Assembly: GCA_000092065.1 (NCBI GenBank)
Contig: CP000598.1
DNA from: Ostreococcus lucimarinus
Taxonomy: Eukaryota
Strand: one strand, 5' to 3'
Length of the DNA stretch: 64,000 bases
The notes below the pieces were generated by a model. That model saw only the letters and a list, made by a program, of their open reading frames with translations. It was not told the DNA's origin and made no database searches. The position numbers and the translations under genes are program-made. This document shows positions 14,666 to 61,925 of the stretch, piece after piece; the first letter of the stretch is position 1; each line of letters starts with the position of its first letter.

Positions 14666-14685
14666 CATATATTAATTGATTTATA

Positions 14686-23668: not shown

Positions 23669-23688
23669 GCACTGGTTGACTTGATTGA

Positions 23689-45181: not shown

Positions 45182-45193
45182 GTATGCTTGCGA

Positions 45194-45699: not shown

Positions 45700-45990
45700 C
45701 CCCCTGAAATTTCAGGGGGTCTATGAGTCACTAGACCCCCTGAAATGTCAGATACTTTCTAGACCGTCTAGAAAGTGTCTGCGAGCTATACCTTATAAAT
45801 TGTGATCAATCGGGCCTAGTGCGTCGATAAGTGATGATGATTACAAGGAGCTATCATTGATTAGTTCATTAATGAGTGTTAACTCGTCAATTAGTCATCC
45901 TAGGTTAACTAGGGGAAGCTATACTTCATATTTTACTCTTCAGATTTCTAACAGTGTCTGACATTTCCAGGGGGTCGAATCAGTAAGATC
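45700..45990. repeat. Cluster of palindromes and inverted repeats: perfect 20-bp palindrome 'ccccctgaaatttcaggggg' (about 45706-45725); 'ctttctagaccgtctagaaag'; inverted pair 'gaccccctgaaatgtcagata' (45735) / 'gtctgacatttccagggggtc' (45960). Includes the 85-bp arm 45781-45865 whose inverted partner is at 61842-61925.
   Basis: Reverse-complement comparison by eye. 85-bp arm 'gcgagctataccttataaattgtgatcaatcgggcctagtgcgtcgataagtgatgatgattacaaggagctatcattgattagt' vs revcomp of 61842-61925, about 90% identical. Confidence 0.7.
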
Positions 45991-46127
45991 CGTGTTCATG
46001 CCTAGAGATTTGAGCGCTCGGTGACAGCGGCAGCTTCCTGAAACGCTCCTCCAGACCCGGACGAGAGCGAGCCGTGAAGCCGTGCGCAAAAGTTCGGCGG
46101 TCGTCGATAGGTCTGGCAACGTCGGTC

Positions 46128-47060
46128 ATGCGTTGGTTGAGGGGACGTGGTGTCAAGGCGATAATGTGCGTCGCCCTTGTCGCAGGTTTCGCCAAGGTAC
46201 CAGATCTGCACGTCAATAAGTATACTATGACACAGACACTGCAAGGCGACGGCTTTGGTTCACAGTTTCAAAATATCACATCTACCGCGGCTGCTCTGCA
46301 CGTCAATAAGTGTACTATGACACAGACACTGCAAGGCGACGGCTTTGGTTCACAGTTTCAAAATATCATATCTACCGCGGTTTTCGCTCAAACCTTGAAC
46401 AAACACTTTTGCGTGACCCCTATCGAAAGCATGGAGCACAACTACGACAATCGCTCAACGTTCCTTCGAGAAGTCAGCGAACTGATTAATTTACCAGTAC
46501 TTTCAAGTCAAGAGGACATGGACATTGAAAAGTGCGAGGTTAAAAAAGGCTGGCTGGATAGCTACATAGTTCAGGAAGCAAATCAGTTGGACGTTCGTAC
46601 AAAATTGGGTAACATTCGAAAGCAGTTCTTGGGTAACAAGCGCTCGTTGTCGGAACTTCGTAAACACGCTGCCGTGCACATCAGGAGGCAGAATTCTTTT
46701 GATAATCGAAACACTGTTTCTCATGATGAAGTCGTGTGCTTTGTGATGAGGGAAATTCTCACTCAAAACAGCAATATTCAGTTTCATGTATTTAGCCAGG
46801 GCGATATTTCGGAGTTTTGGCGCTACCAGAACGATTCAAGAATCGTCCTACGTCTCGACGAACCCATCAACGTGACGTTCACTGAAATGGTTGTCGCCAA
46901 AATTTTGGTCACAGCCACGTCGTCATTTAGCTATGCAGCAGCACTTCTCTCAGAGGGTGAGATATGGGCCCCAAGACCGTTCTGGCACAACTACCCTTCC
47001 TTCTGGAAGACATATCAGCTTTCTCGTACATTGTCTAACTTTGAGACATGCCTACCATGA
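46128..47060 (+). CDS. Membrane-anchored hypothetical protein (about 310 aa) containing a 90-bp perfect tandem duplication (about 46210-46299 and 46300-46389, peptide HVNK[YC]TMTQTLQGDGFGSQFQNI).
   Basis: Track ORF starts at GTG 46074; first ATG is 46128 (MRWLRGRGVKAIMCVALVAGFA). The tandem repeat is read directly. Confidence 0.4.
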   Translation: MRWLRGRGVKAIMCVALVAGFAKVPDLHVNKYTMTQTLQGDGFGSQFQNITSTAAALHVNKCTMTQTLQGDGFGSQFQNIISTAVFAQTLNKHFCVTPIESMEHNYDNRSTFLREVSELINLPVLSSQEDMDIEKCEVKKGWLDSYIVQEANQLDVRTKLGNIRKQFLGNKRSLSELRKHAAVHIRRQNSFDNRNTVSHDEVVCFVMREILTQNSNIQFHVFSQGDISEFWRYQNDSRIVLRLDEPINVTFTEMVVAKILVTATSSFSYAAALLSEGEIWAPRPFWHNYPSFWKTYQLSRTLSNFETCLP

Positions 47061-48372
47061 TACCAGTTTTAATTGTGGGGTGTTAATGCTATCGTTTGTG
47101 AGACACACTCGAGCGCCCTGTAGACTACTCGACTCTATCGCAGTACAAGTTCAGACAACACCAGGCAGAGGGCGTAGGCTAAGCCCCTTTTGCCCGTTCC
47201 CTCTGCCGCACTCTAAGAGCCTACTGCTGTCACAATGGTGCACGCGCTAGTAAGTATATTTTTCCTTCGGGGGTAACCTAGGCGAGTTTTTCTTATTCTA
47301 AAGCTAGTTAGTCAGAGTACTTTTTTATTTTGTGATGGTGACCGAATACAGCGAACACGGTGAAGTCGTCACGTGTGCAAGTCAGTGGCAGTGGCGGGTT
47401 AATGACTTTTCTAGATGAATTCTTTAGTTTGTACAATTCATTGGACATCGATGACCATGTTGATTGGCAGATGTTTAGCACTGCATTACACGAGTACGTG
47501 TTGCTGCTTTGAAAACAATCGGTGGTGACGATTTGTGAGACGAAACAAGGAGCGTATATCTGTGACGTCAGAATACGACGATGCACGGCATAACATCTTG
47601 GAAATTGAGCGCACGTGAACTCTCTGACATAGCACTGCATCGCAAGAATCTCTTAGTCGTCGTTGAGCGTTGTAAAACACCACACGCGCGTCAGCGTACA
47701 TTGTCTGTACAAACTGTCAAATTGTGATTGCGTGAGTACTTTGACGCTCAAGTGAAATCGAAGAAAAAATCCAGGTCCAACATGTTATTCAAAACAACTT
47801 ATTCATGCGTGTAAGTGCATGCAATGGCCGAAAGAGTCAGCGTTGCGGAATCCAGTCAAAGCAAGTTCAGGCTTCCTCAAAACGTTTAACATAATTTTTT
47901 GAATTCTATTCCCGGGTCCATTGGGCGTGAGGGTCGGCGCCACGTTTGCGAAACAGTCAAAATCACGCATGTCGACGAATCATGACTCATCACGCAGTCC
48001 CTCCGCCCCAGCATGATGTTCTGAAATCTGTGACGATCTTTGACGACCGAGTGCGCCGTCGACACGTGCTGCACACCGCTGGAAATCGGTGAACGATGTT
48101 AAAACGAGTGTTGAACGCGTGATCGTCGTTTCACAAGCGCGTGCACGGGTCGTGTGCGATCGCTCGCTCATCAGATGACGCATTTCTGAAAATGGGCGAA
48201 ATAATGTGCGTGTATGTAACCAGTCACTAAAGTGCCTACCTAGGTTACGATTTTGTCAGTTTCGGATCAAAACCGATTGCTGATGGTGATCTTGATTATG
48301 AGCGCGCACAGAGCTGATTCTACCATCATAACGAATCATCCTGACACTTTCTTCACCACGAACTGTCTGTCT

Positions 48373-49344
48373 CTACAACCCCTGGCAGAGCACTTGAGCA
48401 ACATGCCGCATGTGGCGAAATCGCATGTTCAAGAATAAATCGTCGGCGCAATCATGATTCAAACCTCTTGGGAGGTATTCAAAGCCCAACGAGGTGATAA
48501 AGTCGCGAAGTTCATGCTCGCCATGCTGATCAGCGTAGCCGGTAACCACTAGCTCCGGTTGAATCCAGACAACTCGTTTCGATAGCCAATGCCGAGCCCC
48601 TTTGATAATCTCTAAGTCATGGCCCTGTGCGTCAATCTTCAACATGTCGATATATTGGACGCGGCCACCTTGAACACCTAGAGACTCTGACTTTGGAACT
48701 GACACGGACCAAGGCAGAAGGGTAAAGAAATCATGAAGATTCCAAACAGGGACCTGAATTTCATTCTGCACGTCAAACTTGACCGGTTTGTGTAAGCTTG
48801 ATGTCCCTGGATCACCAGCGGTCGCGTAAAATGTCTGCAAGTGTAGAGGAGAAGAGCCCATCGCCACACAAGATAAAAAGTAGCGTTTGCCAACTAAGTC
48901 CAACGGCACACAGAGGTCTCCTGTGGAGCAAGCACAACCCTTCAGTATGTTCTTGCAACTTGTCGGATTAGGCTCAAACGCAAAAACTGTCAGCTGATCC
49001 GGATCGGAAGTGCTGCTGAACCATAAGGCGGAGTTTGGAGCGTTGTAAGACTCACCAATAGATATTTTCACACGCCGCGTATGCCTCGGCAGTGCAATTT
49101 TTCCACGCCGCAGGTGCACTGGAAGTAAGGCACGCGTGGCGTGACGAGTGCGCGAGATATCTTTGATACGTTCGGCCCCTACGAGTGGATCACTTTTTGG
49201 TTCTTCACAGCTACTCCCAAGTGAGTCGCTGTACGATTCAGTCACAGGAAGTCCGCGTGCTGACGCAAACGCAAGGAGTACGAGCGAACCCAGCGAACCG
49301 AGCAAACAGCCCGCAACCAACCTAAATTTCATACTGAATTTCAT
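48373..49344 (-). CDS. FkbM-family methyltransferase domain protein with N-terminal signal/anchor (about 324 aa).
   Basis: 'MLKIDAQGHDLEIIKGARHWL' matches the FkbM C-terminal block. Start placed at ATG 49344 preceding MKFSMKFRLVAGCLLGSLGSLVLLAFASA; an upstream in-frame ATG at about 49398 is an alternative. Confidence 0.55.
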   Translation of the reverse strand: MKFSMKFRLVAGCLLGSLGSLVLLAFASARGLPVTESYSDSLGSSCEEPKSDPLVGAERIKDISRTRHATRALLPVHLRRGKIALPRHTRRVKISIGESYNAPNSALWFSSTSDPDQLTVFAFEPNPTSCKNILKGCACSTGDLCVPLDLVGKRYFLSCVAMGSSPLHLQTFYATAGDPGTSSLHKPVKFDVQNEIQVPVWNLHDFFTLLPWSVSVPKSESLGVQGGRVQYIDMLKIDAQGHDLEIIKGARHWLSKRVVWIQPELVVTGYADQHGEHELRDFITSLGFEYLPRGLNHDCADDLFLNMRFRHMRHVAQVLCQGL

Positions 49345-50080
49345 TCTGACAGGGACTCGCACGTTCTCGTGTCGCTTAAAGCCCGTATTTTGCTCCATCT
49401 CTTCGCGGTCTAAATACTGTATAAAGTGGGTGTGTAGTACGCTCTTTTCCGTTCTTCGGCCTGGGTGTTCAGTATGCTGTTTCCGGTCTTCAGTTTCTTC
49501 ATCTCGACGGCTTCGGGGCGACCACTTTGGCCGGCGACGAGTTTGCCCTGTACCATAGGACATCGTGGCCGCACACAGCATTTCGAGGCCTATATATTAT
49601 AATATCTCTTGTTTTTGTCAGAGGCCTATTTCTCAGAAACATCGTGTCCTTATGCGAAAATGAGGTGGATTAAGAGATGCGAAATTCGAAAATAGAATCG
49701 GCGATTTATTCCGATAAGGGCCGTTTTTTCCCACATCGGAATGAATCGGGCCTTTGTATTCCGAAAAGATACTTGTCAAAATAGCGCGACTCGTCACGTG
49801 ACGAGTTAATTTTAGGGGGTCCTATTCCGACAACGCTATTCCGGCTATCTCTTTTGAAAAACTAGCGACGCGAAATGAAGACGCGCAGTCGCCCCACTAG
49901 TGCGCGTCACTTGTTGAACTCGTTCTTCACCGAACGGGGTTTTAAAGACGTACATGTGTCCTCAGGGAACCGCATGCGGATTGTCGTCGATCTCCTTTGA
50001 CCTCGGACGCTGAGGCCTCGGACCTTAAAGTCCCCGCTTCCGACGTAAAAAGTTCTGTCAGTGCGAGTTTTAGCCACGCT

Positions 50081-52366
50081 ATGAACTGGAGACTGAGTAT
50101 GTCGGAGTCGAAGTCGTTGTTGATTCTTCTCGTTGCATATGCATTTTGCAGCTCGACTCTCTTGATTCTCAATAAAGTTGCGTTGCAGACCATAAACTCG
50201 GGTACATTTTTGCTCCTACTACAGTGCGTGTTCACTTGTATGGCTCTTGGGACTCTCGACCATTTTGGATTTACTTCGGCTATTTCGCCTCTGGAGGCAG
50301 CCGAGCGCGAGCGATTTACTGTGGTGGTTGCCCTGTTCGTGACAACTCTATTTGCCAACATGAAATGTCTACAACTCGCAAACGTCGATACCGTTATCTG
50401 TATCCGCATGACGTGTCCTTTGTTAGTGAGTTTGCTCGATTATCTCTTTCTTGGAAGGGAGCTGCCCACTCGCACTTCAACCCTAGCATTGGTTGCAACT
50501 TGTGTGAGCTTTGCCTCATTTTTACTCGTTGAACAGAACTCTTCATGGATCACAATATTTTGGCTATCATTTTGGTACTGTGCTATGGTATTTGAGACCG
50601 TATTCGTCAAGTTTGTTGTCAGTGACTCGTCGCTTTCAACAGCGGCACAGTCCTTCTATCAAAATTTACTTGCGATCCCGGTGTTGACAGTGATATGGTT
50701 TTCCACAGAGATCCCAACTAGTGTTTTTGAACAAATTTCTTTGTCTACTTCGGAATTCTCCTTGGTTCTGTCCACTTGTATTCTCGGGTTAGGGATGAGC
50801 TACTTGTCGTTTGCTGTGCGTGAACGGGTATCGGCGACGAGCTTTTCAATGCTTGGTAATACGTGCAAGTTGATAACAATTCTAACGAATTATTTACTAT
50901 GGGAAAAACATGCTACAGGTGTTGGAACTTTTGCAGTCCTTTTCTGTCTTGCATCCAGTACCTTTTATCGCCAGGCGCCGTTGCGACATCCTATTAATCA
51001 TAAGGCGCAGTCATGGTTTCCCGCCCCTTGTACCATCAAGGCTACTGAAGAAGTCAATATGAGGATCATTGCAGCTGGGTTACTCGGTATCCTGGCGCTT
51101 GGCTTGCACTTTACTTCATATTTTCGTAGTTCTGTGAACTGGAACCTTGAAGAACAAACAGGTGTTTCTGGCGTTTCAGGAAAATTATTTACTGGTGCAC
51201 AAGTGCGGCAGTATTTTCCTTCGCATGACGATCGTCCTTCCAAGAAAAATCGTTCGACCTCTTCTCCCTTCTTTTCTGATCATATGTCTTGCGAAAATTG
51301 GGCCGTTTGTACCACCATCTTCGTCGAGTCAGACGCAGTGCGTGACGTTTGTAAAATACTACCGTCGTACTGCCTACTTGTCGTCGCAGATAAGAAAGGT
51401 CCACTAGAATACTTCATCGACGGGAACTGCACGTTCGCATACTTATCTGTAGAGCAACAAGAAGACATGTTAACAGACTCAGACTTCATCACAGAAACGC
51501 CGTGGAATCACTTTGGGCGGAAAAATCTAGGGTACTTGTTTGCAATAGCGAATGGTGCGAAGATGATATGGGATTTTGATGATGACAATCAAATAATCAG
51601 TTCAAAATTTTTTCTCGATCAGGCAGGAGAGCACCAACTAGTTACAGTCGAACCAATTACTTCGATGCTGAATCCTTACCCCTTACTTGGTGCCGAAAAG
51701 TTTTCCTGGCCTCGTGGTTTTCCACTCGACGGTATAAAAAACGAGGCATCACAACCAAGCGTTGACGATCTACGAGTTTCTGTCGTCGACTTCGAACGTG
51801 TCGGAGTACTGCAATCACTGGCGAATAATGATCCAGATGTTGATGCTATTTACAGGCTTCAGAGAGACCTGCCTTTCAGCTTCAAAGGCTGGTCGAGTCC
51901 TGCAAGTGTTTTCGTTTTGCCAGGCGCTTCTTTTGCTCCCTGGAATGCTCAAGCCACCCTTTTCAGGATGCGGGATGCACTCTGGGTTTCGTATTTACCT
52001 ATCTCTATTCATGGTAGGGTATCTGATATATGGAGATCATACATAGCGCAGCGACTTTTGCGGAACGTGTGTATTCACATCGCCTTCGCTGTGGAGCCAC
52101 TTGTTGTGCAACATCGAAATCAGCATTCCTACCTTGCCGATTTCGATGCGGAGCAAGATTTGTATTACAAATCAGGTAAACTGATCGAGCTTCTTGGAGA
52201 GTGGACCGCAAAATCTTCCTTTCCTCAAGAGCAGATTGTGGAGCTCTTCAGGATTCTGTATGAACATGATTATGTTGGAATCAAAGATGTTCGAATGATC
52301 GAACTCTGGATTTCAGAGCTCAACCGAGCGGGATACATCTTTCCAAAGAGCTGCAGTGTCCGCTAG
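50081..52366 (+). CDS. Single ORF fusing an N-terminal TPT/EamA-type (nucleotide-sugar/triose-phosphate transporter-like) 10-TM domain to a C-terminal STELLO-like (DUF288) putative glycosyltransferase domain (about 761 aa).
   Basis: N-terminal 320 aa is hydrophobic helices with the 'LQLANVDTVICIRMTCPLLVSLLDY' TPT pattern. An internal hydrophobic segment MRIIAAGLLGILALGLHF follows. The C-terminal 'CLLVVADKKGPLEYF...NHFGRKNLGYLFAIANGAKMIWDFDDDN' matches the DUF288/STELLO core (KN.GYL.AI.HGAK.I.D.DDD). No stop codon between the two parts. Confidence 0.55.
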   Translation: MNWRLSMSESKSLLILLVAYAFCSSTLLILNKVALQTINSGTFLLLLQCVFTCMALGTLDHFGFTSAISPLEAAERERFTVVVALFVTTLFANMKCLQLANVDTVICIRMTCPLLVSLLDYLFLGRELPTRTSTLALVATCVSFASFLLVEQNSSWITIFWLSFWYCAMVFETVFVKFVVSDSSLSTAAQSFYQNLLAIPVLTVIWFSTEIPTSVFEQISLSTSEFSLVLSTCILGLGMSYLSFAVRERVSATSFSMLGNTCKLITILTNYLLWEKHATGVGTFAVLFCLASSTFYRQAPLRHPINHKAQSWFPAPCTIKATEEVNMRIIAAGLLGILALGLHFTSYFRSSVNWNLEEQTGVSGVSGKLFTGAQVRQYFPSHDDRPSKKNRSTSSPFFSDHMSCENWAVCTTIFVESDAVRDVCKILPSYCLLVVADKKGPLEYFIDGNCTFAYLSVEQQEDMLTDSDFITETPWNHFGRKNLGYLFAIANGAKMIWDFDDDNQIISSKFFLDQAGEHQLVTVEPITSMLNPYPLLGAEKFSWPRGFPLDGIKNEASQPSVDDLRVSVVDFERVGVLQSLANNDPDVDAIYRLQRDLPFSFKGWSSPASVFVLPGASFAPWNAQATLFRMRDALWVSYLPISIHGRVSDIWRSYIAQRLLRNVCIHIAFAVEPLVVQHRNQHSYLADFDAEQDLYYKSGKLIELLGEWTAKSSFPQEQIVELFRILYEHDYVGIKDVRMIELWISELNRAGYIFPKSCSVR

Positions 52367-52743
52367 CAAGGTTTAGGATCGGTAAAAATAAAATTACACG
52401 CGTGTCGGTATTCGTTTCGTCGCTTCCGTCGGTTGCGCGCCACCGCTGGGCATTTGAAGTTAGCACTTCTCGATCGCCACGCGCGCGTTGTGGCGTCGTC
52501 GCGACTTATTAGCACTTCCGACGGCGCGCACGTATTAGGGACGTGGAGTGGAATACATACGTAGTTTTCTAATAACGAAAGAAGGAATTCGACTCACAAA
52601 TAAAACAAGTCATGAACACAAACACTTGGACGCGATGCGATGAACCGCAACGACCGTGGACGCCGTGTGGCTCACGCGTCGTATATAGCACTTCGCTTCT
52701 CTCAACGACGACAATGAGAACCGCGGGAGCATCTACTTGTTTT

Positions 52744-53988
52744 TCACTCTGGAAACAAGGTACGCGTTTTTCTTCTCCAGTGCTTCAAGATATCGGCAAT
52801 TGTGTTTGTGATGTTTGGGTCAGGAATCCACCCCGTCAGCTCTCGTATTTTCCTATTATCTGACAAAAGTATCTTCTCATCGTAAAGCCGCTCACGTGCA
52901 CCATCAAACAGCGTCGTGATGTCTGGTCTTGTTGACAGTGAAATCGCTGTGTCTAGGATGTCCTTCATTGAAAGTGCGATGCCACTACCGATGTTGTACG
53001 ACTCTCCAGGCTCTCCAAGGTCTACAAGTTTCGTTACCACTCGTGCAGAATCGCGGAGGTCAGTTATGTCCCTTTTTGTGGTAATGCGCCCATGTCTCAC
53101 CACTGGGCTTTGCAATCCGAGCTCGATCATTGCTATCTGCCGACAAAACTCTTGAGGTGCGAGACTCTCAGTCCCACCCGCTGAAACTTGGATAAAAAAT
53201 CGAGCGGTGACGACGTGCATGCCGTGGCTGTGCACATATTGCTGAGCAAGTAGGTCTGCTGCAACCTTGCTTACTCCATAAGGAGACACGGGCGCCAATG
53301 GTGCTTCTTCAGGTATGGCCCCTTCCCACGTATCAGCAGTTTTTCCATATTCTGTGCTTGAACCAGCCAGCAGAAAGCGCGTTTTGTTGGAGAGTCCTGC
53401 AAATCGCACTGCTTCTAGCATGTTGAAGGTGCCTTTGATGTTGGTATCTAAAGTCAGCTCAGCGGAGTCATATGAAACCCCGTTGATTGCTTGTGCAGCA
53501 AAATGGAAAATAACTGTTGGGCAGATTTCTGCGACCACCTGTTTGACACGAGTTCCGTCCAGAATGTCTCCACGAACGAGCTGTATGTTGTTCAATTCGC
53601 CTGCCAAATTTGACAGGTCAGATCGGTATCGCACAAGACCGTGAACCTCATACTTTCCTTCCTGTATCAACTGTTTCACAACGTAGCTGCCTATCATTCC
53701 AGACACACCTGTCACGAGAGCTCTTGGTCTTGCAGATAGAGCACTCAAGCAAGGCGTGTAATCTTTACTCTTTGCATTAAGATTTGTAGCAAAAGAGGAT
53801 TCCTCACGGTACATATGAGTTTTTGAAGGTTGAACATTGTATCGTGAAGTAACCGGGCTTGAAAGTCCTGATTTGAATTGCACAGCCTGATATGACGGAT
53901 GTAACACAACAGCTGCTAAAACAAACGATGAAACAGCCAATATTCGTGCAGTCTTTCCCAGCGTGTGCTTGAAGCGACTGTCGCGCAT
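52744..53988 (-). CDS. GDP-mannose 4,6-dehydratase-like short-chain dehydrogenase (GMD/Rmd family) with an N-terminal membrane anchor (414 aa).
   Basis: 'ALVTGVSGMIGSYVVKQLIQEGKYEVHGLVRYRS' (Rossmann plus GMD-type N-terminus), 'AGSSTEYGK' (catalytic S/T..Y...K region). Anchor ILAVSSFVLAAVVL about 60 aa before the Rossmann fold. Confidence 0.6.
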   Translation of the reverse strand: MRDSRFKHTLGKTARILAVSSFVLAAVVLHPSYQAVQFKSGLSSPVTSRYNVQPSKTHMYREESSFATNLNAKSKDYTPCLSALSARPRALVTGVSGMIGSYVVKQLIQEGKYEVHGLVRYRSDLSNLAGELNNIQLVRGDILDGTRVKQVVAEICPTVIFHFAAQAINGVSYDSAELTLDTNIKGTFNMLEAVRFAGLSNKTRFLLAGSSTEYGKTADTWEGAIPEEAPLAPVSPYGVSKVAADLLAQQYVHSHGMHVVTARFFIQVSAGGTESLAPQEFCRQIAMIELGLQSPVVRHGRITTKRDITDLRDSARVVTKLVDLGEPGESYNIGSGIALSMKDILDTAISLSTRPDITTLFDGARERLYDEKILLSDNRKIRELTGWIPDPNITNTIADILKHWRRKTRTLFPE

Positions 53989-54469: not shown

Positions 54470-55663
54470 ATGGCGTCCGTAGCGTCCGTTATCGCCGCCA
54501 AGCGCGCTGGCTTCATCGGTATGGGTCGTCTGGGATTGTGTACCGCCCTCAAGTTTGAGCAAGCGGGTTGGGATGTCTGTGGGTCTGACGTCTTTCCGTC
54601 GTACGTTGAAAGTATCAACGACAAGAGTCTTCGAAGCAAAGAGCCCGGAGTCGAAGAGGCTTTGCGAAAGAGCACGCGTTTGCGAGCGACTCTGAATCTC
54701 CTTGATGTCCTAGAGCATGCCGATATCGTTTTCATTCTCGTCGCGACTCCAACCAGCGCGGGCGAAGAGGCCTACGACACGACAACTCTGAGCAGGGTCT
54801 TGAGTGATATCGCTAAATTAAGGCCGACAAACAAACACATCGTGATTTGCTGCACAGTGTTGCCTGGTTACATCTCGAACATCGGTAGTTACCTTATCGA
54901 AAGTTGCACTGGATGTAGTTTGAGTTACAATCCAGAGTTCATCGCCCAGGGTGAGATCATGAAGGGCCTCAGTGAACCCGACGTGGTGCTCATAGGGGAA
55001 GGAAGCGAAGAAGCCGGTGATATTCTACAGTTTTTATACGAGACCGCGACGTCCAATGAGCCTCGGATCTGTCGCATGTCTCCGCAAAGCGCTGAGATAA
55101 TGAAACTAAGCGTAAACTGCTTTGTTACCACGAAGATCAGCTTCGCCAATATGATTGGTGACATTGCTGACGCGACGCCTGGTGCAGACAAATTCGACAT
55201 CCTTAGAGCCGTTGGTCAGGATACACGTGTCGGCCACCGGTGCATCCTTCCAGGTTACGGCTTCGGAGGTCCTTGCTTTCCACGTGATAATAGAGCACTC
55301 GGAATGTACGCACGCAAGGTTGGAATCACTCCTTCAATTTGCGACGCGACGGATGAATACAACCGACTTCACGCGGACGCCATGGTAAAGGCTCTTTTGG
55401 AACAAAAACTAGAGCATTATACCATCAGTGATGTTGCTTACAAGCCACAGTGTCCGGTGGATATTATTGAAGAGTCGCAACCACTCGAAGTGGCCAAGAG
55501 ACTTGTTCAAGCAGGCAAGCGAGTCGTTATACGCGATCGACCCGCCATCATCGAGCTCGTACGCCGCGCTTACGGGCGTATGTTTACCTACGGAGCATAC
55601 AAAGTACCTAACGAAGAACCAAATACTTCTGCTGGCAACCCGTTATCAAGCTACGCGAGGTAA
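54470..55663 (+). CDS. UDP-glucose/GDP-mannose 6-dehydrogenase family (UgdH/WecC-like nucleotide-sugar dehydrogenase), about 397 aa.
   Basis: 'GFIGMGRLGLCTALKF' NAD-binding start, 'NPEFIAQGEIMKG', 'GFGGPCFPRDN' catalytic Cys block. Start moved to ATG 54470 (MASVASVIAAKRAGFIGMG) by analogy with the paralogous fragment at 58817. Confidence 0.7.
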   Translation: MASVASVIAAKRAGFIGMGRLGLCTALKFEQAGWDVCGSDVFPSYVESINDKSLRSKEPGVEEALRKSTRLRATLNLLDVLEHADIVFILVATPTSAGEEAYDTTTLSRVLSDIAKLRPTNKHIVICCTVLPGYISNIGSYLIESCTGCSLSYNPEFIAQGEIMKGLSEPDVVLIGEGSEEAGDILQFLYETATSNEPRICRMSPQSAEIMKLSVNCFVTTKISFANMIGDIADATPGADKFDILRAVGQDTRVGHRCILPGYGFGGPCFPRDNRALGMYARKVGITPSICDATDEYNRLHADAMVKALLEQKLEHYTISDVAYKPQCPVDIIEESQPLEVAKRLVQAGKRVVIRDRPAIIELVRRAYGRMFTYGAYKVPNEEPNTSAGNPLSSYAR

Positions 55664-56407
55664 GCTCAACCATGTTCACGTTTCAACGCTGTCACCAACT
55701 CACCGCGTGTCTGATGCGCTGGTGGCCAGATCTTTTGATTTAATATCTATCCATGATATAATCACAGATCTTTCACATCTTAGCCACCGTGCTCGTCGTT
55801 TCCTCGGATCTCGCACGAAGTTGAGATAAATTTCATGTATAAATTACTCACCCTAATATCATACTGCATACACTTTAAGTGCGTCGATAAAGAGCTTTGA
55901 GGTCGTGACAACGGCTGGAATCTACGAACCTGTTTCACGCATCAAAGTCCACCATGCTTTGAACCCTGCGGTTTGTGGCGCGTGATGAGCAAGTAGCAAG
56001 TGCCACCCAAACCTGCGTTCTATGGTGCGCACGAGAGCATCCGGCATAGCCGCGAACCACGGCTCTTTTTTGTATGTGTACGATGTATATGATTTGTATG
56101 TGTATGATTTGTTCGGGCGTTTTTTCCTTCGACTAATTTTGTCATCATCATCGAAACGGAACGTTTAATTCGAGCTCTCCACATTTTAGGGCTAATTTTG
56201 GGAAAAGTGTGACTGTCCATGTATAGACACAACACCAAACTCGATTAAAAAGCTCCTCAAAAAATGTGCGGGAATTGTCTCGAGTGTGTGGCGCTTGCGA
56301 TTGTGGCACGCGTTGAAGCGACTCGCGGTACGGCACGTACGTAGTCTTGAACACGAATATATGTGAATACGATTCACGTTCGAACGCTCTTGGAGTTGCG
56401 CTTCGAC

Positions 56408-57961
56408 ATGCTACTGAAAGTAGCTTGCGATTCCGGTACTATGGCTCGCCGAACGGTCATTCTGTTTGCGGTTGTGGCCGTGTTGCTTTGGAGACTGTTC
56501 TTGTTCGATATTGGTGACAGCAGATTTAAAAGTATCACACCACATCCATCACCGGAGCAAAGACGACAACAAAATCACCGAGCAAGATTTTTAGAGCTCA
56601 CACATAACGAAACCTACAAAACCGCAAATGTCGAAGAGAGGAACGATGAACATTTCAAGATGGAACGATATGAAGAATCACCTGCAAGATTACAAGCGTC
56701 AGCTAATTTGGATACACAGAGCACCCGCGTCTTGGTTTTAAGTTGGCATGGTGGTACCGCGAAAGACACAGCGATGCAACTTCATAACGCTGGAGTTCGT
56801 CGCGAAAATATCGTGTGTGGAGGCATTATTTGGTACGAGAAAGTCCTCGATTCTGCTCCTTGCGTAAGAGATCATGCATTATCTGAGGCTTTGAATCGAT
56901 TGACACAGCGTGTAAGAGGTTTTCCCATGGCTATCGATCCAGCAGACGAGAAATGGTTGGATGATTTCGCAGCTGAGGCTAGCGAGATGCTATCTACGTT
57001 CCATGTGCTCTGGGCGGACTTTCCTACCGCCCTTTGTCTTCTATTAAACAAGATTGCCCCACATAAATTGATAGTACGCACAACGCATCGTTTTGATCAC
57101 CAGGTGGCTCATTCGAAGATAAATCACACGTCATTTGTACGTAAAAGCCTCATGCGCGTTCTACGCGAGGCGCCAATACTTCTTGCTGGGAGCGAGTACG
57201 ATCGGGCATACATGAAGTTCTACACATGTCGTGAACCTGAACGTCTATTCATAACATGGCCAACACAGTATTTGGAGAGTTTGGGCGCATCGCGTACACT
57301 TACGAACGAGTCATGCTTCATCTTGTGGGGGGGGTCGAACAACGAAGGTAGTTCAAGCATATCGATTACATTTGATAGAATACGAGTCCTCGGGCGCACT
57401 ATGGAGTCACAAGTTCCCATGAAAAGTCGCCCAACGAGTTTTGCTCACGCTTCGGAATTTGCAACAGAGCAAGCCGTAGTATATTTCCCATACAGTATGC
57501 CGAGTTCCGCATTTCATGAACTTTACGCGAGTGGTGTCCCCCTTTTCGTGCCATCGTTGACTTTCATGCTCGATGAGTTTTCAAAAAACCGTGGCTATCC
57601 TCACAAAGTAGCTGGTAATGTCCCTTGTGCTTCACCATCTTTTTACGAAAACGCTGAGGCAGTGGAGTTCTGCTGTCTTGACGATACTGGGGTATGTCAT
57701 GATCCAAATTCATGCGATCCTGAAGCGCTGAAACAATGGGTATCATTAGGTGACCTTTACACCACCCCGCATGTGACGTATTTCGACAGTGCCGAGCATG
57801 CTGTGGAACTCATGAGCAACTGGATGAAGCATCCAGACCAACGGGATCGAACGATCGAGGACATGGAGTCACACAACGTTGCTAACCTTCGATGGAATGC
57901 TCGTGTCGTTCAAGCCGCAATTCGTCATGTCAAACAAAGCAGCGCGCTTGAACTGGATTGA
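56408..57961 (+). CDS. Type II membrane protein, possible glycosyltransferase (about 517 aa).
   Basis: Anchor RRTVILFAVVAVLLWRLFLF. Long ORF. Its last 46 codons are duplicated at 61462-61599. Confidence 0.4.
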   Translation: MLLKVACDSGTMARRTVILFAVVAVLLWRLFLFDIGDSRFKSITPHPSPEQRRQQNHRARFLELTHNETYKTANVEERNDEHFKMERYEESPARLQASANLDTQSTRVLVLSWHGGTAKDTAMQLHNAGVRRENIVCGGIIWYEKVLDSAPCVRDHALSEALNRLTQRVRGFPMAIDPADEKWLDDFAAEASEMLSTFHVLWADFPTALCLLLNKIAPHKLIVRTTHRFDHQVAHSKINHTSFVRKSLMRVLREAPILLAGSEYDRAYMKFYTCREPERLFITWPTQYLESLGASRTLTNESCFILWGGSNNEGSSSISITFDRIRVLGRTMESQVPMKSRPTSFAHASEFATEQAVVYFPYSMPSSAFHELYASGVPLFVPSLTFMLDEFSKNRGYPHKVAGNVPCASPSFYENAEAVEFCCLDDTGVCHDPNSCDPEALKQWVSLGDLYTTPHVTYFDSAEHAVELMSNWMKHPDQRDRTIEDMESHNVANLRWNARVVQAAIRHVKQSSALELD

Positions 57962-58094
57962 AAATGCTGGTCGATACAAAGAAGCTGTGGGGGCGATACT
58001 TTGGACATCGTATTCAATATCTTACTTGGCGTACCTCGCCATGTAGAGTCTCACGCCTAGCGTATGTACGCGAAGTGAAAATAGATTTGAGTTT

Positions 58095-58817
58095 TCATTT
58101 AGTGTAACTCGATAGCGGGTTTTCCATGGTGGTGTTCGGGATGGGCGCTACTCCCCCTGCCGTAGTATCGCATATTTCGTAATCGAACAACTGCCCGTAC
58201 GTTCCTCGCACTAAGTGAACAATCGCCACCCGGTCGAAAACTGTCACTTTCTTCCCCCGTCGCACGAGTCGTTTCGCGATTTCGAGCAGCTGGGACTCTT
58301 CGATGATATCCACAGGACAATTCGATTCATATGCGACGTAGGATACCTTACACCTATCGAGATCTAGCCAGGTAACACCGTGCCTCAAATCATCAAGTGT
58401 TTGTTCTCGGGGTTCAAGTCGCTAATATCACTCAAAAAACCGACTGAGCGCGCTTGTGTCGTACGCTTGATCTCCAGAGTCAGTGGGCGTGGCGACGAGG
58501 ATGAAGACCATATCGACGCGATCGATCACTTCACGCAGCTTTAAAGTTGCGCGCAGATGTTTGCTCGATCGAAGCGCTTCCTCGACTCTTGGCTCAGTCA
58601 AACGAAGCGTGATTTCGTTGATGCTGTCCACGTGCGCCGGAAAGACATCCGAACCAACGATATCCCAATCAGCTTGTTCACACTTGAGAGCCGTACATAG
58701 TCCGAGTCGGCCCAGACCGACGAATCTGGCGCGCGTTGTTTGCAAGATCGATCGAGTGGTAGCCATCTTCGCTCTGCGACGTTGCAACGTCAGAGACGGC
58801 GACTGGCCCAAGATCAC
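58095..58817 (-). pseudogene. Internally deleted paralog of the nucleotide-sugar dehydrogenase. N-terminal about 110 aa (58428..58817) and C-terminal about 80 aa (58095..58388) are recognisable; the central catalytic region is missing.
   Basis: 'MATTRSILQTTRARFVGLGRLGLCTALKCEQADWDIVGSDVFPAHVDSIN' and '...CPVDIIEESQLLEIAKRLVRRGKKVTVFDR...ENPLSSYTK*' align to the ends of 54470..55663. Confidence 0.6.
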
Positions 58818-59560
58818 TCCACTCTCTTAAAGCATGTCTCTTTCTGGACTTTATTATCCCTGGTACTTTGTTAGGTATATGTCGTAGGAACGCAACCGCG
58901 GACCACAGCCTCGGTGTTGACTCACCACTGCTTTCCTCTGCGTCGAAACTACCGCAACAACGCTCTTGACACGCGCACTAACATTAAGTACACCGGTCGT
59001 GAGCGACGCCATGCGCGAGTCGAATGAGTTCGTGAAAACGTTTTACGATGATCGCCCTTGTAACATTCGGCTCGAAGGAATACTTTGAAGAAGTGACGCG
59101 GCGTAAATATTTCGTCGAGAACCACACTTTGGCATTCGCAAGTCTCGACGCGTACGAAAACAATCTGTTCTCGAGGTTGGTTGCGGTATAGGGACCGCGA
59201 CACAAAGTTTTACTGAAGCTGGCGCGGTTTACACAGGCATCGACGTTTCCTTGCGAAGTGTAGAACTCGCTGAGAAGCGACTCAAACTGTTCAAACTCAA
59301 TGGTGAGGTGCGCGTTGCAGATATACAGACCGATGAATTCATGCACGACCATTTTGATCCTCTTTTTAGTTTCGGAGTTCTGCATCACATCGCCGATGTA
59401 CAACCCGCCGTGAAGGATATTTCATGACTCTCAAACCGGGAGGCGAGTGCAAGCTGATGATGTACGCAAATAATTCTTGGAAAAAAACTTGGAAAAAGAC
59501 TTTCGTCGACTCGGGATTGGACCAATTTGAACCACAATCTGGAGTTCCAATCACTCACAC

Positions 59561-60750
59561 TTACAAAGCCAGTGTCGTGCAATCATCAAGCTCGTTTGTG
59601 AAATCAAACTCGAGCGATCGTCGTCGACCGTCCGCGCTCGCCGAAGGGTGCGGGCGCAACGCAGGTGAGAATTCGCCCCAGTAGGCGCTCAAGTCGTTAT
59701 TCGAGTACCAACGCACGGTTTCCGCGAGACCGACGTCCCAGGACTTTTCTTGTCGCCATCCGAGCGCTAAAAGCTTTGAGCAATCGATGAAATATCTTCG
59801 GTCGTTGAAGGCTCGATCGCTCACGTGCTCGATGGTCGTTTCCGGGTCGCGATCGAGGAGCTTACAGACATCCCGAGCGACGGACAAGATCGTCCGCTCT
59901 TCGCGCGAGCCGATGTTATAAATCTGCGCCGTCGTCCCGCGGTGGAGAATGACATCGAACGCCGAAGACGCATCGTCAACGTGCATGTACGAACGCGTCG
60001 CGTCGCCGTCGCCGTGTATCGAAATCTTTTCCCCGCGTTTCGCGAGGATTGAAAACTTTGGAATCGCCTTCTCTGGATACTGATTCGGCCCATACACGTT
60101 GTTTCCGCGAGTGATGATGTACGGTAGTCCGTACGAGCGTCCATACGCCATGACGAGCATCTCCGCGCCCGCCTTGGTCGCGGCGTACGGGTTGGTGGGC
60201 GTCAGGAGCGACGCGTGCTCGGTGTTTGAATCCATGAGATTTTCCCCGTATACCTCATCCGTGGACACGTGCAGGAATCGTCGAATTTCGGTCTTCTGCG
60301 CTCGCACGCACGCCTCGAGTAACGCGTGCGTGCCCTCGATGTTATTCTTCGTGAACTCGTACGAGTTCCCGAAAGAGTTGTCCACGTGACTCTGCGCGGC
60401 GAAGTGCATGACGGTGTCGATGCGCTCGCTTTGCAAGACGTAACTCAATAAATCGAACGAACGCACATCGCCCTTGACGAACCGCACGTTCGCGCATTCT
60501 TTCGCGCGCTCGAGATTTTTCAAGCTCGAGCAATAGTCGAGCTTGTCCAGGATGACAATCTGTCGAGCGCGACGAGTCGTTCGCGGTCAGTCGTTCGCGC
60601 GAGAGATGGGTGCAAAGTCCGTGCGTTGTTCGACGCACGCGCACGGGGTCGAAATCGTGCGCGCACCGTGTACTCGGGATGCCTCGACGCGAGGCGCTCG
60701 GCGACGTGCGAGCCGATGAAGCCGGCGCCACCGGTGAGAAGGATGCGCAT
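59561..60750 (-). CDS. dTDP-glucose 4,6-dehydratase (RmlB) / UDP-glucose 4,6-dehydratase family, two exons. Exon 1 is 60667..60750 (MRILLTGGAGFIGSHVAERLASRHPEYT), intron 60560..60666 (GTGCGC...ACAG, 107 nt), exon 2 is 59561..60559 (IVILDKLDYCSSLKNL...).
   Basis: Exon 1 contains the GGAGFIGS Rossmann motif. Exon 2 has 'HFAAQSHVDNSF' and 'YAATKAGAEMLVMAY' (catalytic YxxxK). Joining the exons restores the expected 'Y.V..LDKLDY' continuity in frame. Confidence 0.7.
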
Positions 60751-61239
60751 GCGGGCGGACGGGCGTCTCGGTCGAGCGCGTCTAGATTTTCGCAGATTAT
60801 CTCGACGACATGCTCGCGAATACCGCGCGCGCCTCGAGGGCGTTCGCGAGTGCTGCGCGCGATGTCCACGCGACGCCGCGCCTTTTGACGCCACTCGCAC
60901 CGGCGCGCAGAAAACGAACGGCGGTTCGGCGGGGCGCGAAAGTGATTACTCCTTCGGGGGTAACCTAGGCGAGCTTCCCGTATTCATGTACAAATTACTC
61001 ACCCATATATCATACCTGGTATTGATCCGACACGCGTCAGAGATAACGGGGAGAATAAAACCACAGAAATTCATGTACACGCGGCACTTCGACAAAGTCT
61101 TTCGATCGTTAAAGCACTGGTGACCCCTCTACCCTCCACGTTCTGTCAGAGGCTAGTTCTGTGAGTCTCTCAGTCTGTATTCTTTTACACCGAAGGTCGC
61201 TCCGAGGACGAAACTATCTTGTGTTTATTTTTGGATCTG

Positions 61240-61830
61240 GTCTACTGCATACACTTTAAGTGCGCCGATAAAGAGCTTTGACTTCGTGACAACGGCTGTC
61301 ATCTACGAACCTGTTTCACGCATCAAAGTCCACCATGCTTTGAATCCTGTGGCTTGTGGCACGTGATGAGCAAGTGCCACCCGAACCTGCGTTCTATGGT
61401 GCGCACGAGAGCGTCCGCACGAGAGCATCCGGCATGGCCGCGAACCACGGCTCTTTTCTGGATGAAGCATCCAGACCAACGGGATCGAACGATCGAGGAC
61501 ATGGAGTCACACAACGTCGCTAACCTTCGATGGAATGTTCGTGTCGTTCAAGCCGCAATTCGTCACGTCAAACAAAGCAGCGCGCTTGAACTGGATTGAA
61601 AATGCTGGTCGATACAAAGAAGCTGTGGGGACGATACTTTGGACATCGTATTCAATATCTTACTTAGCGTACCTCGCCGTGTAGAGTCTCACGCCTAGCG
61701 TACGTACGCGAAGTGAAAATAGATTTGAGTTTTCATTTAGTGTAACTCGATAGCGGGTTTCCCATGGTGGTGTTCGGGATGGGCGCTACTCCCCCTGCCG
61801 TAGCATCGCATATTTCGTAATCGAAAAGTT
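61240..61830 (+). repeat. Composite duplicate: 61240-61460 copies 55860-56070, and 61462-61830 copies 57822-58190. Carries a truncated 3' fragment (61462..61599) of the 56408..57961 gene, a pseudogene remnant.
   Basis: Direct alignment. ORF 61354..61599 ends with the same 'WMKHPDQRDRTIEDMESHNVANLRWN.RVVQAAIRHVKQSSALELD*' as 56408..57961. Confidence 0.75.
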
Positions 61831-61841
61831 AACGTGCCCAT

Positions 61842-61925
61842 CGAGTACTAATCAATGATAGCTACTTGTAATCATCATCACTTATTGACGCAGGCCCGAT
61901 TGATCGCATAGTATTAGGTATAGCT
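61842..61925. repeat. Inverted partner of the 85-bp element at 45781-45865.
   Basis: The reverse complement aligns at about 90% identity. Confidence 0.65.

Follow-up and report, generated by a model that had tools for sequence, protein, structure and literature searches.

A 16-kb segment of the small outlier chromosome of Ostreococcus lucimarinus is probably a mosaic of shuffled sugar-metabolism cassettes

Results

The window analysed here, a stretch of 64,000 nucleotides, belongs to chromosome 18, the small outlier chromosome (SOC), of Ostreococcus lucimarinus CCE9901. Its open reading frames (ORFs) include exact matches to ABP00650, ABP00660 and ABP00661, which are encoded on the 149,386-bp chromosome 18 record; the size given for the SOC is 150 kb (Yau et al. 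2016, PMC5082852). Ostreococcus SOCs are low in GC, carry many glycosylation genes and are structurally hypervariable (Yau et al. 2016, PMC5082852). The window has a GC content of 53.4%, falling to 48.8% in the segment of interest (45780-61929), and it holds FkbM, GT17, STELLO, NST, UGDH and SDR dehydratase genes. At least five alternative arrangements of this DNA between strains were found among metagenome and SRA contigs.

All 10 major ORFs inside or adjacent to the segment were searched against Pfam (Table 1). The interior contained nucleotide-sugar and glycosylation genes only, and no transposase, integrase, polymerase or capsid domain was found in these 10 ORFs. The first ORF of the segment has a 90-bp in-frame tandem duplication at 46205-46380. 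The N-terminal half of the STELLO-type protein, which has no Pfam support, looks like a sugar-nucleotide transporter from its hydrophobic sequence. UGDH1 is 73% identical, from M77 on, to the UGDH2 of contig L007, and the 532-aa orphan has only 11 homologues, all of them unnamed metagenome proteins. The first-pass annotation had described an internally deleted UGDH paralogue, and the comparison with the L007 orthologue bore this out. The dTDP-glucose 4,6-dehydratase-like gene has a probable intron at about 60506-60707, a stretch missing from L031. The composite duplication reported earlier was also real, and resolved into one copy (block X') of 55862-58187. Positions 55862-56076 recur at 61243-61464 (85% identity) and 57820-58187 at 61458-61825 (97.6%), with the intervening deletion closed at a TG(G/T)ATG microhomology. 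The truncated gene copy noted there is the 3' end of the 532-aa gene (61354-61599).

Table 1. Features in and around the segment.
Feature	Position	Strand	Remarks
FkbM-like methyltransferase, C-terminal remnant (pseudogene)	45194-45508	-	84% identical to residues 601-703 of intact 703-aa gene on L007
Intergenic module, 118 bp	45552-45666	+	87-88% matches in L010, L018, L047, L053
Palindrome cluster, left part	45698-45779	.	perfect 24-nt palindrome (45698-45721) and left 46 nt of 63-nt palindrome split by el
Target-site duplication GTGTC, left copy, 5 bp	45775-45779	+	
el, full-length (TG...CA)	45780-45953	+	first 86 bp are the left arm; boundaries recur exactly in dozens of metagenome contigs
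Target-site duplication GTGTC, right copy, 5 bp	45954-45958	+	
Interrupted 63-nt palindrome, right end	45959-45976	.	
ORF, function unassigned	46074-47060	+	likely start M31 at 46164, giving 298 aa; 298-aa gene called on L067
FkbM-family methyltransferase	48373-49581	-	PF05050, E = 7e-9
Multi-pass membrane protein, C-terminal STELLO-type glycosyltransferase domain	49997-52366	+	PF03385, E = 5e-20, sole Pfam match
GDP-mannose 4,6-dehydratase/reductase-like SDR enzyme (GMD-like)	52744-53988	-	PF16363, E = 9e-63; JGI names of cluster members
GTAC-rich intergenic breakpoint zone	54166-54198	.	haplotype H2 exits at 54166 (L002, L067); block B starts at ~54193-54198 (L076-L081)
Block B, 6.7-kb cassette	54198-60931	+	UGDH1, 532-aa orphan, UGDH pseudogene, dTDP-glucose 4,6-dehydratase-like gene
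UGDH1, UDP-glucose/GDP-mannose dehydrogenase family	54242-55663	+	PF03721 and PF00984; likely start M77
532-aa lineage-specific orphan, N-terminal membrane anchor	56363-57961	+	no Pfam match
UGDH2 pseudogene	58095-58817	-	530-bp internal deletion; intact 401-aa orthologue on L007
dTDP-glucose 4,6-dehydratase-like gene, two ORF pieces	59561-60900	-	PF16363 and PF01370; GC-richer part of segment
Block X', degenerate direct copy of 55862-58187	61243-61825	+	1.74-kb internal deletion, microhomology join
Templated insertion, 22 nt	61824-61845	+	perfect reverse complement of 62123-62144 (right flank); junction of X' and truncated el
el, truncated: positions 1-85 only, 3-nt deletion	61847-61929	-	right arm
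Right-flank module	61930-62383	+	common to haplotypes without right arm; 73% paralogue of window 19507-19740

The segment was first noticed for an 85-bp inverted repeat at its ends, and this is genuine, although its coordinates had been placed 1-5 bp off: 45780-45865 aligns with 61929-61847 at 88.4% identity over 86 columns with one 3-nt gap (blastn, E = 4.5e-24). The left arm is the first half of a dispersed 174-bp element, for which we use the working name el, and the same copy lies at the identical site in the independent assembly L067. As a complete element with its own 5-bp duplication, the left arm is therefore not the terminus of anything larger. A search for target-site duplications outside both arms found none that brackets the 16 kb: the outer flanks differ (GTGTC and TTTCG), and GTGTC is duplicated around the left 174-bp copy alone. 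Where the right arm meets the interior there is a short templated insertion, inverted and fold-back-like, with the source of the 22-nt patch on the opposite strand, 280 bp away.

The palindromes reported around the left arm also stood up: GACCCCCTGAAA occurs four times at 45698-45976, compared to 0.15 expected by chance. Excising 45780-45958 restores a 63-nt palindrome, GACCCCCTGAAATGTCAGATACTTTCTAGAC-c-GTCTAGAAAGTGTCTGACATTTCCAGGGGGTC, and the reconstructed 121-nt stretch with both hairpins has a folding energy of -73.7 kcal/mol. The left el is a clean insertion into a palindromic intergenic spacer. Neither el nor the palindromes are a known RNA gene, as a comparison of 44-64 kb with Rfam gave nothing at E <= 0.1 and the window contains no tRNA.

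The core 21-mer of el was found in 58 marine metagenome contigs, with about 48 distinct left and 25 distinct right flanks, and the unit boundaries at 45780 and 45953 were reproducible across contigs. An exact 5-bp duplication at offset 0 was present in 5/23 unique full copies, including the left copy in the window; as a control, 63 shifted offset pairs gave a single match, and no copy had a 6-bp duplication. The duplications have no consensus (GTGTC, GATAG, AAAAA, TTTTC, TCTAA). That el spreads by transposition follows from the 5-bp duplications themselves. We read the lack of a duplication in the other 18 copies as post-insertion recombination, and some of these may be chimeric joins made by short-read assemblers at the 174-bp repeat. 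All copies are intergenic and lie among glycosylation cassettes, in DNA of ~48% GC. The neighbouring genes are almost all glycosylation genes (NST/TPT transporters, FkbM methyltransferases, GT10/11/25/29/90, UDP-GlcNAc 2-epimerase and similar), and el has no consistent orientation with respect to them. Truncation points within el range from 51 to 110, many metagenome contigs end within it, and three groups of contigs have an identical flank of 100-300 bp on one side of el and differing flanks on the other, a pattern that points to recombination at el.

What kind of element is el? It is short and non-autonomous, and from its TG...CA ends and 5-bp duplication it looks most like a solo LTR. Its termini (TGCGAG...TCTAACA) are conserved across copies, its length is fixed, and its duplication falls within the 4-6 bp expected of a solo LTR. 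It also shares SOC residence, small size and dispersed solitary copies with solo LTRs and TRIMs such as the retrostreo2-derived TRIM of O. tauri chromosome 19 (PMC5082852), a likeness of features rather than of compared sequences, and has a weak 6-nt terminal inverted repeat (TGCGAG / TGTTAG). In contrast to such elements, the el-bearing contigs yielded neither paired LTRs nor a PBS, PPT or gag-pol between copies, and few LTRs are as short as 174 bp. Where el forms direct pairs, on L012 and L019, the copies have glycosylation genes between them or bear separate duplications, and no reverse transcriptase or integrase family was present among the 25 listed of 79 families in 108 el-flanking ORFs. 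el does not fit a MITE, as the ends agree at only 4/6 positions and the duplications lack a consensus.

On L054, el is interrupted by an autonomous 3,368-bp PIF/Harbinger element with Plant_tran (PF04827, E = 5e-23) and DDE_Tnp_4 (PF13359, E = 3e-15) transposase domains, a second ORF, GGCCGACTAAGAG terminal inverted repeats and a TTA duplication of the 3-bp TWA type. The environment of el is therefore TE-active. This element is absent from the window and has no relationship to the arms: unlike it, el has 5-bp, non-TWA duplications and lacks such terminal inverted repeats.

The segment had been described as poorer in GC and CpG than the flanking 26-37 kb region. This holds against 25-37 kb (61.0% GC, CpG observed/expected 1.76, compared to 48.8% and 1.29 for the segment), whereas the immediate flanks are only ~3 points of GC above it (37.0-45.8 kb, 51.7% and 1.60; 61.9-64 kb, 51.7% and 1.50). 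The tract that is low in both measures runs from about 45.8 to 58.9 kb (47.7%, 1.19). Its right boundary does not match the right arm because 58.9-61.0 kb, within the segment, is GC-richer (55.5%, 1.71). SOC-type contigs bearing el have a mean GC content of 48.5%, the same as the segment, and therefore its AT-richness is no mark of a foreign insert.

Alternative haplotypes came from the 58 contigs with the arm core and 26 more from protein look-ups, of which those of the JACLAB assembly (GCA_014466335.1) may derive from several strains. L007 is colinear with the window over 33719-45552 and then diverges; it has a 2-kb intact FkbM-like gene in place of 45553-57988, and its UGDH2 is intact. In L002 and L067, two independent assemblies, 54166 is joined to 61929 through 13 bp, so that 46-54.2 kb and the left el are kept while 54167-61928 and the right arm are absent. 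L002, L044 and L067 match the window down to 61929, followed by CTAGGGA and unrelated DNA. Block B occurs at 99% identity in at least four left contexts and two right contexts (L076, L077, L078/L081, L079, L080, L054, L043). In L076, L054 and L043 an el copy lies 188 bp beyond the right end of the block; it is oriented opposite to the right arm of the window and is full-length in L076, cut by the contig end in L043 and Harbinger-split in L054. L074 and L075 have an in-frame chimera of the 532-aa and GMD-like genes, an inversion-type junction linking 56647 to 53771 with an AAGAG microhomology at the join. In L010 and L053, some 65 bp separate the 118-bp module from DNA that copies window 52475-52560. 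The first-pass view that this is not static core genome is thus upheld by the SOC location and by environmental haplotypes in which kilobases of DNA at or beside the segment are replaced. In these haplotypes the whole unit is not present or absent as a block, which was the check proposed for it; breaks fall at 45552, 54166, 54198, 60931 and 61929.

Discussion

We consider it probable that the 16 kb is a mosaic of sugar-metabolism cassettes, shuffled by ectopic recombination and error-prone break repair, as is typical of SOCs. The arms are two independently placed copies of el rather than the paired termini of one element. On this reading the interior consists of cassettes, each with one to four genes, that act in nucleotide-sugar synthesis, transport, transfer and methylation; their combination and context vary by natural haplotype. 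The left el inserted cleanly into the palindromic spacer. The right el suffered a break at position 85 and was then attached to a partial duplicate of the interior, with 22 nt of opposite-strand sequence from 280 bp away copied in during repair. Cassettes would be shuffled by ectopic recombination at dispersed repeats together with microhomology or template-switch-type repair. Junctions fall in intergenic DNA, at el, GTAC-rich spacers or microhomologies. Such shuffling would leave pseudogenes (the FkbM remnant, UGDH2, the 532-aa gene fragment) and, occasionally, in-frame chimeras. The literature suggests that pressure from prasinoviruses would favour diverse cell-surface glycans and thereby preserve the variants. 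el may be a bystander in the rearrangements, as the breakpoints at 54166, 54198, 60931 and 45552 are not at el.

Those four breakpoints also bear on an alternative in which el is a dedicated, integron-like recombination site bounding exchangeable cassettes, so that exchange would have evolved as a function of the SOC instead of arising incidentally from repeats. The intergenic position of all copies among glycosylation cassettes, the pairing of one flank with several partner flanks exactly at el, the many contigs that stop inside it and its recurrence 188 bp right of block B are all consistent with this. However, the target-site duplications show transposition, orientation and truncation points vary, no recombinase was identified, and part of the recombinant-flank signal could come from chimeras that assemblers make at repeats. 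We therefore regard an integron-like role as unlikely.

Two further alternatives are more doubtful still. In the first, the arms drive a reversible inversion of the 16 kb that switches expression of glycosylation genes, modelled on the large inverted-repeat region of the O. tauri SOC, which is tied to virus-resistance expression (PMC5082852). Recombination between 85-bp inverted repeats of 88% identity is possible in principle, and the population does contain an inversion-type junction, but this links 56647 to 53771 and does not involve the arms. The homology is short and diverged, and in none of the 58 + 26 contigs does the left flank run into the right-end interior in reverse complement, nor does the converse junction occur in them. 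L067, the sole independent assembly spanning the left arm, is oriented like the window and lacks the right arm, and we judge an inversion switch very improbable.

The second is that the right-hand structure (X', the 22-nt inverted patch and the truncated arm) is an error of the reference assembly. Repeats are a classic cause of misjoins. The junction at 61826-61929 is reproduced by no independent contig, its exact configuration being that of the reference, and ORF look-ups with 61862-62275 (arm/flank junction) and 61354-61599 (X') found nothing. On the other hand, the DNA on either side of the junction was confirmed at 98-100% in other samples, the duplicates are diverged rather than collapsed identical copies, and a templated insertion is typical of biological repair. 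The reference published by Palenik et al. in 2007 is also a finished Sanger assembly, which counts against an error, and we give this explanation very little weight.

The least likely explanation, which we regard as close to untenable, is a single large mobile element ending in the 85-bp repeats (a composite or TIR transposon, foldback, Polinton-like element or integrated virus): the inverted match is real, interior GC and CpG are below the surroundings and haplotypes break exactly at 61929, the outer edge of the right arm, but the left arm is half of a unit with its own duplication, the outer flanks are unequal, the right arm is truncated and meets the interior at a repair scar, the right arm is missing from L067 and L002 while both carry the left arm and 46-54 kb, and other haplotypes break within the unit. 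A TIR-bounded or composite transposon at 45780-61929 was thus rejected, there being no outer duplication, no transposase or integrase in the 10 ORFs searched and no whole-unit presence/absence among the haplotypes, and so was a virus-derived island or Polinton, given the lack of viral hallmark domains and 0 matches of the arm core in IMG/VR. In a viral search that detects close relatives only, the 532-aa protein had none and the GMD-like protein had one 24% partial match. Of the first-pass proposal of an inserted or rearranging element, the rearranging, hypervariable DNA stands and the single inserted 16-kb transposon, foldback insertion or virus-derived island does not.

A mosaic of shuffled cassettes has parallels elsewhere. 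Polymerase-theta-mediated end joining and replicative template switching (FoSTeS/MMBIR) leave templated-insertion junctions. The 22-nt opposite-strand patch between unrelated sequences, with microhomologies of 2-7 nt at neighbouring junctions, is of this kind, and the scar itself suggests repair of this type. Bacterial O-antigen and capsule loci are mosaic clusters of atypically low GC that are exchanged between strains, with edge breakpoints often near IS remnants. Their clusters of nucleotide-sugar dehydrogenases, dehydratases, transferases and methyltransferases may be analogous to those seen here, although here the genes are on a eukaryotic nuclear chromosome, each is monocistronic and has intergenic regions of its own, and an intron is present in at least one.

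The closest parallels are other Mamiellales SOCs (O. tauri chromosome 19, PMC5082852; O. mediterraneus, PMC13390643), which likewise have low GC, are enriched in glycosyltransferases, methyltransferases and sugar transporters, and undergo duplications, deletions, inverted repeats and translocations. Their junctions show short microhomology, ascribed to end joining (PMC5082852, PMC13390643). In contrast to those studies, chromosome 18 of O. lucimarinus was viewed here through natural metagenome haplotypes instead of laboratory lines, and the changes are kilobase-scale cassette replacements at base resolution, not deletions or fusions of >=100 kb. A recent preprint describes the outlier regions of O. 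lucimarinus as largely free of TEs, whereas here a short TE family, el, is present at several junctions.

The inverted arms are copies of a 174-bp dispersed element

The inverted repeat described in the first-pass annotation is real: positions 45780-45865 align with 61929-61847 at 88.4% identity over 86 columns, with one 3-nt gap. A chance match is ruled out by self-blastn of the window (E = 4.5e-24). We scanned public metagenome contigs with the 21-nt core common to both arms, which gave 58 contigs. Mapping these back showed that the repeat unit is 174 bp long (window 45780-45953), beginning with TGCGAG and ending with TCTAACA, and that its boundaries are base-exact in dozens of copies. Of the 23 non-redundant copies that are complete and flanked on both sides, 5 have an exact 5-bp direct repeat at their outer edges (GTGTC in the window; GATAG, AAAAA, TTTTC and TCTAA), while a control over 63 shifted offset pairs gave a single 5-mer match and none at 6 bp. 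Therefore, the unit has spread by transposition, with a target-site duplication of constant length (5 bp).

TG...CA ends together with a 5-bp duplication are the outcome of insertion by an LTR-retrotransposon type of integrase. Our best guess from these two features is that the element is a solo LTR or a TRIM remnant. We infer this origin rather than assert it, because in the 58 contigs examined no two copies were seen to enclose a PBS, PPT or gag-pol.

In these contigs, the element is joined to about 48 different sequences on its left and to 25 on its right. Full copies are all intergenic, which led us to drop an introner-like element (the target plus the element could mimic GT...AG), and they show no orientation preference with respect to neighbouring genes, which argues against a promoter module oriented to genes. 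A structured RNA or tRNA-derived SINE was rejected for both the element and the nearby palindromes, as neither gave Rfam or tRNA matches.

The 108 non-redundant ORFs flanking the element encode mostly sugar-nucleotide and triose-phosphate-type transporters and FkbM or other methyltransferases. Glycosyltransferases of families GT10, 11, 25, 29 and 90, UDP-GlcNAc 2-epimerase, cytidylyltransferase and SDR dehydratases belong to this dominant set as well. The contigs bearing the element have a mean GC of 48.5%, matching that of the segment between the arms. Thus, the AT-richness of the segment is normal for element-bearing DNA of the small outlier chromosome (SOC) type, and does not mark a foreign insert. 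Flank gene content and GC together suggest that the element is SOC-specific. According to a recent preprint, the outlier regions of O. lucimarinus are largely devoid of transposable elements; a short non-autonomous family such as this one would be easily overlooked. The element is a short family, not remarked before, that is concentrated in SOC-type DNA of a species called TE-poor.

The segment is not a single mobile unit

The left copy is a whole element. When it is taken out together with one GTGTC, an unbroken 63-nt palindrome (containing GTCTAGAAAGTGTCTGACATTTCC) is recovered, and the reconstructed 121-nt stretch with both hairpins has a folding energy of -73.7 kcal/mol. The left arm therefore appears to lie inside a palindrome cluster because the element inserted into the 63-nt palindrome. 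The cluster itself is genuine and local, with GACCCCCTGAAA present four times at 45698-45976 against 0.15 expected. It is not a genome-wide repeat, as the motif was found solely at this locus and in its orthologue on contig L067.

The right arm consists of element positions 1-85 only, inverted. Between its inner end and the end of the composite duplication described below lie 22 nt (61824-61845) whose reverse complement occurs without mismatch at 62123-62144 in the right flank. Such a scar would be expected of template switching, or of a break repaired with a templated insertion. The right-arm junction of the window was not recovered in any independent contig. Exact-protein look-ups for ORFs near the junctions returned nothing for 46074-, 46128- and 46164-47060, 61941-62228, 61862-62275 or 61354-61599.

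These observations bear on the proposal that the arms are the termini of one inserted or invertible 16-kb element, for which we found no support. The arms adjoin GTGTC on the one side and TTTCG on the other, which are no duplication of each other. They are not the termini of a common element. A large transposon, Polinton or virus-derived island is further contradicted by an interior (45780-61929) lacking any transposase, integrase or viral hallmark gene, and by haplotypes that carry only parts of it. A search of IMG/VR gave no matches to the arm core and no close relatives of two interior proteins. We conclude that an intact and a broken copy of the element bracket hypervariable glycosylation-gene DNA by positional coincidence.

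The internal rearrangements noted earlier stood up to inspection. The composite duplication copies 55862-56076 at 61243-61464 (85%) and 57820-58187 at 61458-61825 (97.6%); base by base, it is a single copy of 55862-58187 with 1.74 kb missing from its interior, the deletion lying at a TG(G/T)ATG microhomology. At 58095-58817 (-), the internally deleted UGDH dehydrogenase paralogue is short of 530 bp; its intact orthologue (401 aa), on a metagenome contig, still has them. The segment is also poorer in GC and CpG than the 25-37 kb region, as claimed, but only about 3 points below its immediate flanks in GC. By these values (see table), the compositional tract runs from about 45.8 to 58.9 kb, starting near the left arm and ending 3 kb short of the right arm.

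Positions and composition of features (window coordinates unless a contig is named)
Feature	Position	Details
Segment between the arms	45780-61929	GC 48.8%, CpG o/e 1.29
Left flank	37.0-45.8 kb	GC 51.7%, CpG o/e 1.60
Right flank	61.9-64 kb	GC 51.7%, CpG o/e 1.50
Part of segment	58.9-61.0 kb	GC 55.5%, CpG o/e 1.71
High-CpG block	25000-37000	GC 61.0%, CpG o/e 1.76; embedded in low-GC chromosome; BCCT betaine/choline transporter at 29263-31488
FkbM methyltransferase		segment gene
Multi-pass membrane protein with STELLO glycosyltransferase domain		segment gene
GDP-mannose-dehydratase-like SDR (GMD-like)	52744-53988 (-)	segment gene
UDP-glucose/GDP-mannose dehydrogenase		segment gene
dTDP-glucose-4,6-dehydratase-like SDR		segment gene
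Two proteins without assigned function		in segment; one of 532 aa
Chimeric gene	L074 162-1562; L075 72-1472	window 56261-56647 joined to 53771-52748
In-frame tandem duplication	46205-46380	90 bp, 98%; in ORF just downstream of left element; also in L067
Motifs CCTTCGGGGGTAACCTAGGCGAG and TTCATGTAYAAATTACTCACCC	47258-47298; 55832-55864; 60945-61015	short, conserved, repeated intergenically between cassettes
DUF285-repeat ORF	1545-9368 (+)	2,607 aa; 13 matched stretches, 1193 bits; 75-bp tandem units; perfect 822-bp internal duplication (1902-2723 = 2835-3656)
Direct duplication	10191-14406; 22125-26353	4.2 kb, 98.8%; 841/843-aa ORF
Near-perfect palindrome	14663-14782	120 nt
Tandem array	20053-20844	132-bp unit
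Dispersed intergenic repeat	1236-1304; 14938-15006; 18046-18114; 19795-19863	69 bp; telomere-like GCTAGGGTTTAGC at end

The window belongs to the small outlier chromosome

ORFs of the window are identical to GenBank ABP00650, ABP00660 and ABP00661 (CCE9901, 149,386-bp record); the window is chromosome 18, the SOC of O. lucimarinus. This chromosome is about 150 kb long, and its 97 ORFs are enriched for methyl- and glycosyltransferase genes (Yau et al. 2016, PMC5082852), a description with which the gene set of the segment agrees. The 532-aa protein belongs to an orphan family of just 11 members, all unnamed environmental proteins.

The dTDP-glucose-dehydratase-like gene is present as two ORFs. 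On contig L031, position 60708 is joined to 60505, so that about 200 bp (60506-60707) are absent, which fits either an intron, with L031 derived from a transcript, or an intron-less allele in L031. A 64-bp inverted match (78%) between 49864-49925 and 54073-54136 lies upstream of the STELLO-domain and GMD-like genes; homologues of these 5' regions adjoin transporter-type genes on L030, L051, L056 and L062. The match resembles a promoter or 5' module common to paralogous cassettes.

Alternative haplotypes break the segment into parts

The 16 kb was not present or absent as a unit in other haplotypes. In the first of these, H2 (L067, NCBI GCA_014466335.1), window 44357-54166 is preserved in order at 98% identity, palindromes and left element included. 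After 54166 it has 13 bp (TTGTACCTAGGGA) and continues with window 61929-62383, a junction that is identical in the ENA contig L002. H2 thus lacks 54167-61928 and the right arm, a difference that may have arisen by insertion in CCE9901 or by deletion in H2. A third contig, L044, has CTAGGGA joined to TTTCGAAAAT in common with these, with a different left side again. CTAGGGA is therefore part of the ancestral right flank, and was replaced in the window by the truncated element. H2 also carries an extra 201 bp at 52459/52460 (L067 3540-3740, L002 2016-2216), which partly match a flank of the element on L053 and have no clean target-site duplication around them.

A second haplotype, H3 (L007, JGI), is colinear with 33719-45552 and then has a 2-kb intact FkbM-like gene of 703 aa, of which the window keeps just the last 104 codons (45194-45508). 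Beyond this gene, H3 has an intact UGDH2 followed by unrelated genes. In its part equivalent to 25000-37000, L007 is annotated with a C5 DNA methylase and a CXXC/Tudor gene.

Block B (54198-60931) contains UGDH1, the 532-aa gene, the UGDH2 pseudogene and the dehydratase. It is found elsewhere at 99% identity, preceded by one of at least four left sequences, which diverge within a few bases of ...GTACTAATTGTAGTC. On its right side, L076, L054 and L043 have 188 bp and then the element, opposite in orientation to the right arm of the window. Of these three copies, the one in L076 has its full length, that in L043 runs off the end of the contig, and a Harbinger transposon interrupts the one in L054.

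Finally, an inversion-type junction at an AAGAG microhomology joins 56647 (+) to 53771 (-) in frame. The product (P0116, 428 aa) combines the N-terminal membrane anchor of the 532-aa protein with the GMD-like catalytic domain. Two ocean assemblies contain it independently, one from Tara and one from another ENA sample.

Possible routes of cassette exchange

In Mamiellales, the SOC is regarded as the basis of rapid resistance to giant viruses, and the reshuffling of its gene content is a current subject of study. The region reads as a probable mosaic of small glycosylation cassettes. Haplotype junctions are intergenic and lie at copies of the element, in GTAC-rich spacers or at 2-7-nt microhomologies. 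Three groups of contigs share an identical 100-300 bp on one side of the element and have different DNA on the other, as would be expected of ectopic recombination between copies. Copies of the element are truncated at different points (positions 51 to 110) or, in some cases, joined head-to-head, which indicates that breakage with non-homologous or template-switch repair is also at work. Short-read metagenome assemblers may join sequences chimerically at a 174-bp repeat, and the recombinant-flank signal is possibly inflated for this reason. The H2, H3, block B and chimera junctions are unaffected, because they lie away from repeats and are mostly found in at least two independent assemblies.

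The SOCs of O. tauri (PMC5082852) and O. mediterraneus (PMC13390643) show large deletions, translocations, inverted and tandem repeats and microhomology junctions, and the same papers tie the SOC to prasinovirus resistance. The present locus is alike in its kind of behaviour and, extrapolating from those papers, selection for glycan diversity would keep the variants. The locus is a case of SOC structural variation with a short non-autonomous transposable element, both of known kinds, to which base-level detail is added here.

A stronger reading, which we consider improbable, gives the element, or the intergenic spacers into which it inserts, an active role: cassettes on a virus-immunity chromosome would be exchanged preferentially there. 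Wild Ostreococcus would then continually recombine glycosylation modules of one to four genes, and even swap membrane anchors into chimeric enzymes, generating glycan diversity against prasinoviruses. If this is true, Ostreococcus would have a eukaryotic counterpart, in function, of O-antigen or integron cassette exchange in bacteria.

The locus provides base-level cases from natural O. lucimarinus-like populations: sharp cassette boundaries, repair scars (microhomology, templated insertion), a 6.7-kb four-gene block in at least four contexts and an in-frame chimeric enzyme. The copies of the element and the breakpoints are concrete targets for long-read population surveys. As a correction, what looked like a giant transposon, AT-rich and bracketed by inverted repeats, is two unrelated copies of a small element on a chromosome known to be hypervariable.

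Other transposons and repeats

An autonomous PIF/Harbinger transposon of 3,368 bp (L054 2869-6236) is nested in the element at its GTTAAC site. It encodes a 554-aa Plant_tran/DDE_Tnp_4 transposase and a second ORF of 443 aa, and has GGCCGACTAAGAG terminal inverted repeats. Being a nested insertion with its own TTA duplication, it does not make the 174-bp element a Harbinger MITE. On L013, sequence similar to the Harbinger inverted repeat adjoins the element. ORFs with a DDE_1 (pogo/Tc5-type) transposase domain lie directly beside the element on L053 (4784-7335), and the related contig L010 lacks this stretch of about 2.6 kb. At the end of the second copy of the 4.2-kb direct duplication, the context switches exactly at 26354 in L021, L028 and L050.
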